From: a virus
Virus record (IMG/VR): IMGVR_UViG_3300046534_001374
Coordinates: 1 to 64,000 of that record
Length of the DNA: 64,000 nucleotides
Reading direction: 5' to 3' (one strand)
Shown: piece after piece, positions 21,212 through 41,178 of the stretch
Layout of the letters: the number at the start of each line of letters is the position of its first letter
Position numbering within the stretch: the first letter of the stretch is position 1
The notes under the pieces: model-generated
What the model saw: only the letters and a program-made list of their open reading frames with translations
Told to the model about the DNA's origin: nothing
Databases searched by the model: none
Translations under genes and position numbers: made by a program

Positions 21212-21259
21212 AGCGACCGTCCTGCTTTTCAGGGGAACACGAATTTTAATCTCGCCGCT
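21212..21259 (-). ncRNA. Conserved post-attenuator structured RNA, copy 1
   Basis: AGCGGC-GAGATTAAAATTC-GTGTT-CCCCT-GAAA-AGCAGG-ACG-GTCGCT; three copies in the window with covariation. Confidence 0.85.
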
Positions 21260-27593: not shown

Positions 27594-28247
27594 ATGAAGC
27601 AATTAGGGTGTCATAACTGTAGTAATTTGTATGATGTTAATTCCGATCAATGGAAGGCATATAGATATAATTTCAAAAAGAAAGGTGTGCGACATTTTTG
27701 TTCTGAACAATGTAGGGAGGAAGTTCGTGGTTATTCCAAACCCGTAACATGTAAACAATGTAACACATCTTTTAATAAAGAAAAGAGTAGAATTGAAAAA
27801 TCGAAAAATAATTTTTGTTCTAGTTCGTGTAACGCTACTTACAACAACACCCACAAAACAAAAGGAACCAGACGTTCCAAATTAGAAGTATATCTTGAGA
27901 AACGATTGACTGAAATTTATCCCGATCTTGAAATTTTATACTCAGATAAAACTACAATCAAATCAGAATTGGATTTTTACATCCCATCCTTAAACCTCGC
28001 ATTTGAACTGAACGGTATTTTTCATTATGAACCAATTTATGGTAAAGATAAATTGGAGAAAATTCAAAACAACGATCATCGAAAATTCCAAGCTTGCTTG
28101 GAACAAGGGATTGAACTTTGTATCATCGATAGTTCTGGTCAGAAATATTTCAAAGAATCAACTTCTCAAAAATACCTTAACATTATTACAAATTTAGTTG
28201 ACTCCAAATTGGAGTCATCCAAGACAGACTACGTGGAAGTATTGTAA
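27594..28247 (+). CDS. Putative free-standing homing endonuclease (Zn ribbons plus Vsr/DUF559-like nuclease domain)
   Basis: CxxC...FCS repeats, SKLE and ELDFYIPSLNLAFELNGIFHY; inserted antisense within the tRNA cluster. Confidence 0.8.
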   Translation: MKQLGCHNCSNLYDVNSDQWKAYRYNFKKKGVRHFCSEQCREEVRGYSKPVTCKQCNTSFNKEKSRIEKSKNNFCSSSCNATYNNTHKTKGTRRSKLEVYLEKRLTEIYPDLEILYSDKTTIKSELDFYIPSLNLAFELNGIFHYEPIYGKDKLEKIQNNDHRKFQACLEQGIELCIIDSSGQKYFKESTSQKYLNIITNLVDSKLESSKTDYVEVL

Positions 28248-28791: not shown

Positions 28792-28839
28792 AGCGTCCGT
28801 CCTGCCCGAAGGGGGATCACGAATTTTAATCTCAACGCT
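28792..28839 (-). ncRNA. Conserved post-attenuator structured RNA, copy 2
   Basis: AGCGTT-GAGATTAAAATTC-GTGAT-CCCCC-TTCG-GGCAGG-ACG-GACGCT. Confidence 0.85.
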
Positions 28840-28847
28840 ACTAAACC

Positions 28848-28913
28848 AAAAAAGCCTTACTCGTTAAAGTAAGGCAAATTCAATCTTAGATTCTAAAACA
28901 AATATTACCTTAC
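28848..28913 (-). promoter_or_regulatory. Attenuator 2: antiterminator overlapping an intrinsic terminator
   Basis: Terminator GCCTTACT/AGTAAGGC plus T run; competing GTAAGGTAA/TTGCCTTAC helix begins at the leader stop codon. Confidence 0.88.
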
Positions 28914-28984
28914 GGAAGAGTGGTATCCTCTCCGTGTTCTACTACGACTGTTGTGCCGTGGTTGAAGTTAGTAACGTTGTTCAT
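28910..28984 (-). CDS. Leader peptide 2, MNNVTNFNHGTTVVVEHGEDTTLP
   Basis: Manual translation; 14 consecutive His/Gly/Thr/Val/Glu/Asp codons; promoter TTGATT-16-TATAAATA upstream. Confidence 0.88.
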   Translation of the reverse strand: MNNVTNFNHGTTVVVEHGEDTTLP

Positions 28985-29039
28985 GTTTTTATTTATAGCA
29001 GGTCTTGATAAGAAATCAAGAACTTTGTTGATTTATTTT

Positions 29040-29115: not shown

Positions 29116-29119
29116 GTTT

Positions 29120-29203
29120 TGGTGGACCACAAGAGAATCGAACTCTTTTAACTTTAATGCTATCTTGCAAGGATAGTGCAACACCCATGTTACCATGCAG
29201 CCC
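29120..29203 (-). tRNA. tRNA-Ala(TGC) with extended variable region
   Basis: CTATC-CTTGCAA-GATAG arm; G3:U70; CCA. Confidence 0.85.
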
Positions 29204-29214
29204 TTTGATGTTTT

Positions 29215-29244
29215 TATTTATAGCAAACTACACCAATTTGTCAA
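29215..29244 (-). promoter_or_regulatory. Promoter for the Ala/Arg(TCG) tRNA pair
   Basis: TTGACA-N13-TGC-TATAAATA, same layout as the three leader promoters. Confidence 0.75.
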
Positions 29245-31008: not shown

Positions 31009-32259
31009 TTAAACAGAACATTCGATTAAGTATCGAATATTAACTTGCGCGTTGTCATAAACAATAAATTCATCATTATGTAGACCAGTATTTCTAGCTA
31101 GTGCTGTGATGCTGTCAAATCCTCTTGGTGGTGATCCTGTTCCTCTTGCGAGATTGGTTTTACCCATTGCGAAATCACACACGAAGAGCCAAGCTCCATC
31201 ATTAGATGCGCCTTGCCCCCATCGTCCGAGACTGTATCCCAGACTTTTAGATGAACAGTTTGCGCCATAAACTCCATTACCAAACATCTTACCAGCAATC
31301 CTAGCAGAAGAAGGTGGTGCGATAGAGAGACCTGATTTAAAAATTGAAAGGCAATTCGCAATTCCAGTTCCGTGGTAATATTGTTCCACATTTCCCCAAC
31401 CTTTATTGTCGAAGGACTTATCCATCTCACCTAAAGTTACTTCATAAATATTAGCAACTTTAACATTACCATAATGATGCATAGACTTTTTGGTTTTATT
31501 GAATTCGTCTTCCAACCTTTTATAAATCGATTTATCTGTGAGAGGTTCTACCGAAACATCAAATACCTTTTCTTCAGGCTCATCATTTCCTTTGTCATCC
31601 TTTTTGGTGGTCGCAGATTTAACGCTAACCTCTAAAGAATCTAGGAGAGCTTTCTGTTTCTTAATTCCGTCTAGATTTGCGAAATTAGAATCTACAAAAC
31701 TCTGAACTTTTCTCCCTACATTCTGAGGAACGATTTCGAGGAAATTGCAAGCGTAATTATAGAATGTTTTACAACTCTTATCTTTAAGAACAAACATCTT
31801 ATCCAGAAGTTCACTTGCTTCAATAAGGCCATCGCCAGTTACAATACCGAGAGGTGTTTGAAACAACCCACTGGAGGAGTTGAAGGTAATTTGAGTGTTG
31901 GCTGTAATCTGGTGGATATTGGCTTTAGACAAACGCGAAATAAGCTTCTCAGCGAGCGTTGAGGAAGTTTTGATTTGATTCCTTGCGAGTTCATGAACAG
32001 AACCCGAAGGGACGTTAGAAACGCTTACAGACTCAGAGAGGGTCTTTGTTCTAACGTAACCCTTCTTCTCTTTGGATTTAATTTTAGATCTTAGCTTACT
32101 TTCGCCTTGCCACGATCCTTTTTGTGGATTGGCATTTCCGACTCTGCCCCAACGAGCATCCCAGTGACCATCTTCATAGAGATCCACTTCATAAAATTTA
32201 TTATTGTTAGCGACGATGGTGACGCAGATCAATCTGACTGTTTCTTTAATTTTGGACAT
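31009..32259 (-). CDS. WGR-domain PARP-like ADP-ribosyltransferase
   Basis: NNKFY...WGRVG (WGR); catalytic H-Y-E triad in YHGT, GKMFGNGVY...KSLGY and NDEFIVY. Confidence 0.92.
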   Translation of the reverse strand: MSKIKETVRLICVTIVANNNKFYEVDLYEDGHWDARWGRVGNANPQKGSWQGESKLRSKIKSKEKKGYVRTKTLSESVSVSNVPSGSVHELARNQIKTSSTLAEKLISRLSKANIHQITANTQITFNSSSGLFQTPLGIVTGDGLIEASELLDKMFVLKDKSCKTFYNYACNFLEIVPQNVGRKVQSFVDSNFANLDGIKKQKALLDSLEVSVKSATTKKDDKGNDEPEEKVFDVSVEPLTDKSIYKRLEDEFNKTKKSMHHYGNVKVANIYEVTLGEMDKSFDNKGWGNVEQYYHGTGIANCLSIFKSGLSIAPPSSARIAGKMFGNGVYGANCSSKSLGYSLGRWGQGASNDGAWLFVCDFAMGKTNLARGTGSPPRGFDSITALARNTGLHNDEFIVYDNAQVNIRYLIECSV

Positions 32260-34866: not shown

Positions 34867-34975
34867 CGGTGCGCCCAATCAGATTCGAACTGATAACCTA
34901 GCCTTTATCCACGTAACACACTAAGATCAGTATGTTACGAAAGAGAAGCTTACTCTACCCTTGAGTTATAAGCGC
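34867..34975 (-). tRNA. tRNA-Ile(GAT) interrupted by a 34-nt hairpin insertion
   Basis: Removing 34910..34943 restores AGCTT-CTGATAA-AGGCT. Confidence 0.75.
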
Positions 34976-36151: not shown

Positions 36152-36238
36152 TGGTGTGCATAATCGGACTCGAACCGATAAGGGATTACTCCCACTAGAA
36201 CCTAAACCTAGCGCGGTTACCATTTTCGCCACACGCAC
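36152..36238 (-). tRNA. tRNA-Leu(TAG)
   Basis: Loop TT-TAG-GT, variable arm, CCA. Confidence 0.9.
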
Positions 36239-36311
36239 ATACCGTTGTTTTGTCAGACTGGGACAACGAGAAACCCTTTACATATTCATCTACCACTGGT
36301 AGCGAACTAAG

Positions 36312-36893: not shown

Positions 36894-36936
36894 ACATCTA
36901 CTTATCTGTTACACACTACTGGTAGCGAACTAATTC

Positions 36937-39870: not shown

Positions 39871-40043
39871 TGGTGTCCCATGTGGGGATTCGAACCCTAC
39901 TCACATTATATCCTTTGTCAATTACTAATGCATTTTCTTTGACACTCTATTTCCTGTGGGCCGATACTTCATCTTACGACTTCTTCGGGCACACTTCTTA
40001 CACTACGTTTAAGTAGTAGCTCTAGCCATTGAGCTAATGGGAC
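39871..40043 (-). ncRNA. tRNA-like RNA with ~95-nt variable-region insert
   Basis: GTCCCAT/ATGGGAC-A-CCA, D arm, ACTAC-TTAAAC-GTAGT arm, long insert, GGGTTCGAATCCC. Confidence 0.7.
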
Positions 40044-40113: not shown

Positions 40114-40206
40114 TGGAGCGGAGGAACCGATTCGAACGGCTATCTGTTCTCAGTTGTATAAGGTTAGGCTTGGATTCGCCCTGTGCTGCCATTACACCAC
40201 CTCCGC
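40114..40206 (-). tRNA. Atypical tRNA-Gly(TCC)-like RNA
   Basis: GCGGAGG/CCTCCGC-T-CCA Gly-type acceptor; 8-nt loop GAATCCAA; unstructured long variable region. Confidence 0.55.
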
Positions 40207-40215
40207 TTTTTACTG

Positions 40216-40608
40216 TTACCAGTCAATATTTATAACGTATTCTCCTGCTTCGATCAAGCCCTTTTTGAATAAATCGTCAAAGAGTATTTCGATGTTTGGA
40301 AAGAAATTCCGTTCCCAAAACATTTCAAGAGTCCAAGCAGAGTCGGATTCTGAAAGTTGTTCTGTGGGATCTCGCTCAAGCCAGTCTTTCAAAGAAACAG
40401 AACCATACTCATTTTTAATGATATCCTCTAGGACATATCCTTCTAGGACATATCCTTCTTCAACATCTTTCACAGGAACTTTTACATATTGGGTTCCTCT
40501 TGCTCTACAACCAAATTGTTGCTGAAAGCTAAAAGGTCTTTTGTAAGTTTCCTCGATGAAATCGTCCAAATCTGAGACTTGGACATATTTTATGGTTTCG
40601 TATTTCAT
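40216..40608 (-). CDS. Hypothetical protein
   Basis: 130-aa ORF ending GEYVINIDW. Confidence 0.7.
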   Translation of the reverse strand: MKYETIKYVQVSDLDDFIEETYKRPFSFQQQFGCRARGTQYVKVPVKDVEEGYVLEGYVLEDIIKNEYGSVSLKDWLERDPTEQLSESDSAWTLEMFWERNFFPNIEILFDDLFKKGLIEAGEYVINIDW

Positions 40609-41129: not shown

Positions 41130-41178
41130 AGCGAACGTCCTGCCATTTCTGGGGGCACCGAATTTTAATCTCTCCGCT
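41130..41178 (-). ncRNA. Conserved post-attenuator structured RNA, copy 3
   Basis: AGCGGA-GAGATTAAAATTC-GGTG-CCCCCA-GAAA-TGGCAGG-ACG-TTCGCT. Confidence 0.85.

Follow-up and report, generated by a model that had tools for sequence, protein, structure and literature searches.

In the enterobacterial attenuators trpL, hisL, leuL, thrL, ilvL and pheL, a short translated leader with regulatory codons is followed by a terminator, a ribosome at the end of the leader covers the 5' strand of the antiterminator, and the genes under control encode biosynthetic enzymes. The pheST attenuator of E. coli, in which a leader with Phe codons controls phenylalanyl-tRNA synthetase, extends this arrangement from biosynthetic pathways to a component of the translation apparatus, and T-box riboswitches, which bind uncharged tRNA directly and need no ORF, tie tRNA status to terminator read-through before translation-related genes. 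The tRNA genes of phages are usually viewed as constitutive, either as helpers that adjust to codon usage or as spares against host defences that cleave tRNAs, and a full-text search of the literature returned no paper in which a leader peptide controls the tRNA genes of a phage. Can the same genes be placed under a switch that listens to the ribosome? Here we describe a phage locus, cassette B, that is probably a ribosome-mediated leader-peptide transcription attenuator of the trp/his type, heading one of three tRNA blocks in its genome.

The window analysed comprises the first 64 kb of a 139.6-kb IMG/VR record (CheckV completeness estimate 65%), and its source is an uncultured T4-like myovirus of ice metagenomes. 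The genome encodes rIIA, a baseplate wedge protein, a ribonucleotide reductase and a PARP-like protein. Several ice metagenomes contain this phage; no close cultured relative was found, and a search of GenBank phages with the cassette region gave matches at the level of tRNAs only. Apart from one doubtful low-threshold call, every tRNA gene is on the minus strand, within the interval 18.3-41.0 kb.

Cassette B consists of a promoter, a short ORF and a strong intrinsic terminator (Table 1), promoter and terminator together enclosing a unit of ~140 nt. The terminator stands between the leader ORF and the genes that would be regulated. Past it follow a conserved structured RNA of 48 nt, an orphan ORF of 125 aa, for which neither a family nor a homologue outside this phage was found, an internal promoter and the tRNA block, whose genes are ordered Glu(ttc) (28331-28259), Asp(gtc), Gly(tcc), Thr(ggt), Thr(tgt), Val(tac), Gly(gcc) and His(gtg) (27024-26951). 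Rfam hits are strong for seven of these eight tRNAs. The eighth, tRNA-His(gtg), is a weak call made by ARAGORN only, with a non-canonical T-loop and without an Rfam tRNA hit even at E = 10; it has A73 and no encoded G-1, and would need a Thg1-type enzyme if functional, an enzyme that is encoded in relatives of this phage group. Opposite the block, between tRNA-Glu and tRNA-Asp, the plus strand carries an ORF for an HNH-type homing endonuclease (27594-28247).

Table 1. Features of cassette B and of the region that follows it (positions in the window)
Feature	Position	Strand	Basis or remark
Cassette B: promoter, 24-codon ORF and strong intrinsic terminator	29019-28848	minus	
Promoter: -35 TTGATT (29019-29014), 16-nt spacer, -10 TATAAA (28997-28992)	28992-29019	minus	read directly; predicted
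Leader ORF: 24 sense codons and TAA stop (28912-28910)	28984-28910	minus	
Putative sensor run: codons 9-22, only His/Gly/Thr/Val/Glu/Asp	28960-28919	minus	
Strand 1 (putative anti-antiterminator): early leader codons	28982-28970	minus	pairs with 28909-28896 in the full-length minimum-energy fold
Antiterminator 5' strand GTAAGGTAA, includes the stop codon	28913-28905	minus	
Antiterminator 3' strand TTGCCTTAC, overlaps the terminator 5' arm	28877-28869	minus	
Intrinsic terminator: 9-bp G+C-containing stem and 4-nt loop (28875-28854), T6 (28853-28848)	28875-28848	minus	terminator scan; hairpin -11.1 kcal/mol
Conserved 48-nt structured RNA, directly past the terminator	28839-28792	minus	covariance model, 71-80 bits
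125-aa orphan ORF, first gene past the attenuator	28760-28383	minus	
Internal sigma-70-like promoter, 11/12 consensus positions, just upstream of tRNA-Glu	28374-28346	minus	
tRNA block, eight genes, Glu(ttc) to His(gtg)	28331-26951	minus	ARAGORN

For the ORF to act as a leader peptide it would have to be translated, and no Shine-Dalgarno sequence precedes it. The -10 hexamer is followed by a conserved A-rich stretch that ends 1 nt before the ATG, and this ATG lies 7 nt past the hexamer; the leader is therefore leaderless or nearly so. What does such a start mean in this phage? A -10 hexamer followed after 6, 7 or 9 nt by an ATG is found at 25 of the genome's 100 sigma-70-like promoters, and nearly all of these 25 open ORFs of 64-641 aa, rIIA included. 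Since promoters of this layout head nearly always real genes, leaderless mRNAs appear to be the norm in this phage; leaders B and C fit this pattern, and we infer that they are translated in the same way. Starts of the leaderless type, without a Shine-Dalgarno sequence, occur genome-wide (e.g. at 37825-37797, 35442-35415 and 13827-13799, minus strand), and such heavy use of leaderless mRNAs seems unusual for a T4-like phage with sigma-70-type promoters.

The cassette promoter type is kept in the paralogous cassettes A and C, in the relative G001 (see below) and in a fourth copy at ~29222. The region of this fourth copy (29116-29244, minus) has no ATG, leader or terminator, and the promoter drives a tRNA-like RNA together with tRNA-Arg(tcg); the tRNA-like RNA, which was missed by both ARAGORN and Rfam, has an acceptor stem with three G-U pairs, a UGC anticodon loop, a long extra arm and an encoded CCA. 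Transcripts starting at ~29222 would hold the cassette B leader ORF internally and without a ribosome-binding site.

The most immediate feature of the leader is its composition. The original prediction that each of the eight downstream anticodons has a codon in the 14-codon run was confirmed, every pair being Watson-Crick or wobble partners (codon/anticodon: CAC/GTG, GGC/GCC, GGA/TCC, ACA/TGT, ACC/GGT, GTA/TAC, GAA/TTC and GAT/GTC). Of the 23 leader residues, 16 belong to the amino-acid set of the block; with the long ORFs of the phage as the background for amino-acid frequencies, this has a binomial P of 8e-4, and an uninterrupted run of 14 in-set codons has a probability of 3e-6. The six frames of the 139.6-kb genome contain 749 ORFs of 15-35 codons that begin with ATG, and none of the others matches the block's set as well as this one, whether judged by the run (14, the next best being 6) or by the fraction of residues in the set (0.70 vs 0.56). 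Seven of the 23 residues have no tRNA in the block, namely four Asn and one each of Phe, Leu and Pro. Leader-peptide attenuators are known for runs of regulatory codons, and here such a run consists of 14 consecutive codons for the six amino acids of the eight tRNAs.

Does the match reach beyond amino acids to individual isoacceptors? The use of both Gly and both Thr codon types had been taken to suggest sensing of single tRNAs. With the peptide held fixed and synonymous codons drawn from the phage's codon usage, all eight anticodons are covered with a probability of 0.38 under strict and 0.79 under relaxed wobble rules, i.e. as expected by chance; pooled over four cassettes, coverage reaches P = 0.02 (strict) or 0.22 (relaxed), at best a hint. 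Full coverage is frequent given the peptide, and the isoacceptor match is therefore true as a description and adds no evidence of its own. A ribosome-based sensor is codon-specific by nature, yet the codon choice seen here does not support design at the isoacceptor level.

Cassette B has two paralogues in the same genome, A (~41369-41130) and C (~21440-21212), both on the minus strand as is B itself. The three cassettes share the promoter and the 48-nt RNA after the terminator, and they differ in their leaders; the three tRNA blocks that they head carry largely distinct amino-acid sets. Leader A is rich in Lys, Ile, Met, Ser, Asn, Leu, Arg and Phe, the same residues that its downstream tRNAs carry. 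Leader C contains a Gln/Trp/Pro/Tyr run and is followed by tRNAs for Pro, Gln, Gly and Trp, and for Tyr at lower ARAGORN stringency. Copies of the 48-nt RNA lie at 28792-28839, 21212-21259 and 41130-41178 (minus) and at 1109-1156 of the relative L016; its closing stem covaries, its hairpin sequence is invariant and it has no match in Rfam. It may serve in RNA processing or signal to RNA polymerase.

The tRNA region holds several other elements. A 416-aa protein with WGR and PARP catalytic domains is encoded inside it (31012-32259, minus) and has homologues in Klebsiella, Xanthomonas and Cellulophaga phages. Directly before a tRNA cluster lies a 74-nt element (36236-36309, minus), 94.6% identical to positions 2042-2115 of L016 although L016 is otherwise divergent, and a degenerate copy of it is found near 36930. 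With introns allowed, ARAGORN also predicts a tRNA-Ile(gat) with a 34-nt insertion (34868-34975, minus) and a tRNA-Ala(tgc) with one of 79 nt (39871-40043, minus), and an odd tRNA-like gene of 93 nt occupies 40114-40206. Behind cassette A, a 130-aa protein (40216-40608, minus) belongs to no Pfam family and has >250 homologues in marine and other metagenomes; in the relatives L018-L020 its gene is flanked by RlaP-like and Thg1-like genes, with an RNA ligase nearby, a neighbourhood that suggests a tRNA-repair context. Homologues of this protein are common in marine phages, whose loci have these same neighbours and contain no cassettes.

If the leaders indeed report on the tRNA blocks, the two should change together in relatives. 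Relatives were sought by motif scans of IMG/VR and of metagenome contigs, one of which recovered L016, and by protein-seeded scans of IMG/VR, of which the one seeded with the PARP protein recovered G001-G004; all other motif matches were rejected as due to chance. Contigs from other samples that carry the 125-aa ORF have an identical cassette, and the contigs of four ice-metagenome runs, in which the same phage is present at low depth, contained no cassette variants. In the parts of G002 (58% identity in the PARP-like protein) that were examined, the 48-nt RNA is absent and so is the cassette promoter. The comparative set hence comprises six cassettes, three in the phage and three in two relatives, L016 and G001.

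In L016, the 48-nt RNA (71 bits) is preceded by an 18-codon orthologue of leader B. As far as the contig reaches, the tRNAs behind it are Glu, Asn, Lys, Gly(tcc) and Cys, and the leader has gained Lys and Cys codons next to four Asn codons, Glu and two Gly codons, the latter both of the class read by UCC. Its stop codon is TGA instead of TAA, the Pro codon before the stop has changed synonymously, and the terminator carries matching, compensatory changes in both arms; coding and the three-strand pairing have thus both been kept. G001 is a more distant phage (61% identity in the PARP-like protein) with the cassette promoter type twice before tRNA blocks, no 48-nt RNA detectable with the covariance model, and tRNA genes that begin 28 and 97 nt past the terminators with no gene in between. 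The leader of its cassette E is rich in Ser, Phe, Ile, His, Asp, Trp, Val and Cys and stands before tRNAs for Trp, Ser, Cys, Val, Asp, Phe, His, Ile and Met (22 of 29 residues, P = 6e-5). Its cassette F is the orthologue of C and has a Gln/Tyr/Pro run; F lacks both the Trp codon and the tRNA-Trp behind it, whereas C has both, and within the run C and F differ mostly by synonymous changes or by indels of whole codons that keep the frame. When all six leaders were compared with all six cassette-delimited tRNA sets, significant matches were confined to the diagonal and to the orthologous pair C/F. The diagonal P values range from 6e-5 to 9e-3 and combine by Fisher's method to 7e-13 over six diagonals, the cassettes not all being independent. 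This co-variation of leaders with tRNA sets is the strongest argument for an attenuator.

An attenuator also needs two exclusive structures between which the ribosome can choose. The full-length RNA of cassette B folds with z = -3.5, and the stop codon had been predicted to sit inside the antiterminator strand, as it does: GTAAGGTAA contains the TAA and pairs with TTGCCTTAC at the 5' arm of the terminator. Partition functions were computed for each ribosome position, with the ribosome mimicked by masking 28 nt. At equilibrium, the terminator forms with a probability of 0.99 when the ribosome is at the stop codon and of 0.02-0.56 when its A-site is at codons 11-20, with the exception of codon 18 (0.89). 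Without a ribosome the value is 0.96, because the early leader codons then pair with the antiterminator strand. In a model of the nascent transcript, in which the RNA was folded only up to the terminator loop, GTAAGGTAA and TTGCCTTAC form a 9-bp helix that sequesters the terminator 5' arm; TTGCCTTAC is held in it with P = 0.98-1.0 for A-sites at codons 2-21 and with P = 0.01-0.04 at codons 22-25. The arm is hence released at codon 22, where the matching run ends, and in this model cassettes A and C likewise release it where their matching codons stop. The two models differ for the untranslated state, for which the equilibrium fold predicts termination and the nascent fold antitermination.

Among dinucleotide shuffles of the leader, only 2 of 60 reached the observed switch for cassette B and none of 60 for the sister cassettes A, C and D; in the shuffled leaders, the terminator stays formed wherever the ribosome is placed. 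The cassettes of G001 behave less clearly, E and F showing little or no switch in the equilibrium model and E being ambiguous in the nascent model as well. For cassette B, the folds point to an antiterminator that excludes the terminator and depends on ribosome position, as found in silico. The broader claim of the original prediction, that this is an attenuator in which a ribosome finishing the leader permits termination, thus gains in silico support from the ribosome-masked folds, the shuffles, L016 and the sister leaders.

How would such a switch operate? The sequence itself shows an ORF, the match of its codons to the tRNAs, a terminator and competing helices, together with their conservation among relatives; that the leader is translated, that ribosome and polymerase are coupled and that the switch responds to shortage of tRNAs or amino acids is what we infer beyond that. 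RNA polymerase would start at the conserved promoter and a ribosome would load on the 5'-terminal AUG. Slow decoding of codons 9-22 would make the ribosome lag, so that the strand with the stop codon could pair with the terminator 5' arm; with the antiterminator formed, the polymerase would continue into the 48-nt RNA, the 125-aa ORF and eight tRNA genes for the same amino acids. Fast decoding would instead bring the ribosome to the last codons or the stop, where it would cover that strand, let the terminator form and end transcription at 28848. Decoding capacity would in this way feed back negatively on tRNA supply. The leader is written in the amino acids of its block, and the phage therefore probably continues transcription past the terminator into the block mainly when those codons decode slowly.

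How much of the tRNA supply would pass through this switch? The internal promoter lies just before tRNA-Glu, so that production of the block's tRNAs may not need read-through, and the attenuator may do no more than adjust tRNA levels above a basal supply from that promoter. In the extreme, the attenuator would be real and its main target would be the 48-nt RNA and the 125-aa ORF, the tRNAs being driven from the internal promoter. The near-consensus sequence of that promoter speaks for this possibility, as do the strong TTGACA promoters past the 48-nt RNA in cassettes A and C and in L016, and the 517 nt that separate the first tRNA of the block from the cassette B terminator. On the other hand, the leaders track tRNA sets in six cassettes, including the two of G001 in which no gene intervenes, and the genes directly past the terminators are mutually unrelated and have no link to these amino acids. 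We consider it unlikely that the tRNAs are bystanders in this way.

Even less probable is a small independent unit without any switch, i.e. the gene of a short RNA or micro-peptide with its own terminator, in which synthesis of the peptide would merely depend on the phage tRNAs. The bracketing of so short a unit by promoter and terminator would suit it, and so would the full-length equilibrium fold, which favours the terminator; such a unit does not explain the competitor helix over the stop codon and the terminator 5' arm, with its compensatory changes in L016 and its rarity in shuffles, nor the fact that the paralogous peptides are conserved in their relation to the tRNA sets and not in sequence. 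Could the RNA read tRNAs without a ribosome, in a T-box-like manner, its codon-like triplets pairing with the anticodons of uncharged tRNAs? Triplets complementary to all eight anticodons are present in the leader; these triplets, however, share one frame from ATG to stop, the changes in orthologues are in-frame and largely synonymous, and neither the T-box model nor any other Rfam model matches in a cmscan of 17000-42500, with no specifier loop or T-box sequence in evidence, so that we regard this reading as very improbable. A chance ORF before an ordinary terminator, as small ORFs are frequent in AT-rich DNA, is hardly credible for the ORF that ranks first of its 749 peers, given the probability of its run, the five sister cassettes that share its match to a tRNA set and the combined significance of all six.

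If the attenuator reading is correct, the phage gauges decoding speed at defined codons and tunes tRNA production to match, a feedback loop on the translation apparatus itself that is built from the classic trp/his mechanism. The cassette would also provide a sequence signature by which regulated tRNA blocks could be found in other phages. A bolder and rather doubtful extension is that the three cassettes form an inducible counter-defence, each block being turned on only when the host, or shut-off by the phage itself, depletes the matching tRNAs, for instance by anticodon nucleases; tRNA damage would then be read codon by codon and just the missing set replaced. Were the codons in addition adapted to the isoacceptors that the phage encodes, sensing would operate at the level of single tRNA species.

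How does cassette B compare with the systems described at the outset? No Rfam leader family (Trp_leader, His_leader, Leu_leader, Thr_leader and others) was detected by cmscan in 17000-42500 at E up to 1, a search that returned tRNAs and noise only. The annotated small ORFs among the tRNA genes of phage T5 were considered as a precedent and rejected, being ordinary small proteins with no terminator switch and no match to a tRNA set. T-box riboswitches resemble cassette B in coupling tRNA status to read-through, and differ in their direct, ORF-independent recognition of tRNA and in features that cassette B lacks. With the enterobacterial leader attenuators, by contrast, cassette B shares the short leader with regulatory codons (here predicted to be translated), the terminator and an antiterminator 5' strand that a ribosome at the leader's end would cover. 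The 1:2 helix of trpL has its counterpart in the early-leader strand that can pair with the antiterminator strand, and the multivalency of thrL and ilvL, in which one leader senses several amino acids, recurs in cassette B. Unlike those leaders, cassette B has a leaderless start, and it stands before phage tRNA genes with six amino acids apparently sensed at once. Since these targets are not biosynthetic enzymes, the logic would be homeostasis of decoding capacity and not amino-acid supply. In this respect pheST comes close, although its target is a synthetase, its leader reports on one amino acid and it resides on a bacterial chromosome, whereas cassette B would address tRNA genes, six amino acids and a phage. 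In functional terms, cassette B has the predicted parts of a leader-peptide attenuator of the trp/his/thr/ilv type, placed before phage tRNA genes.
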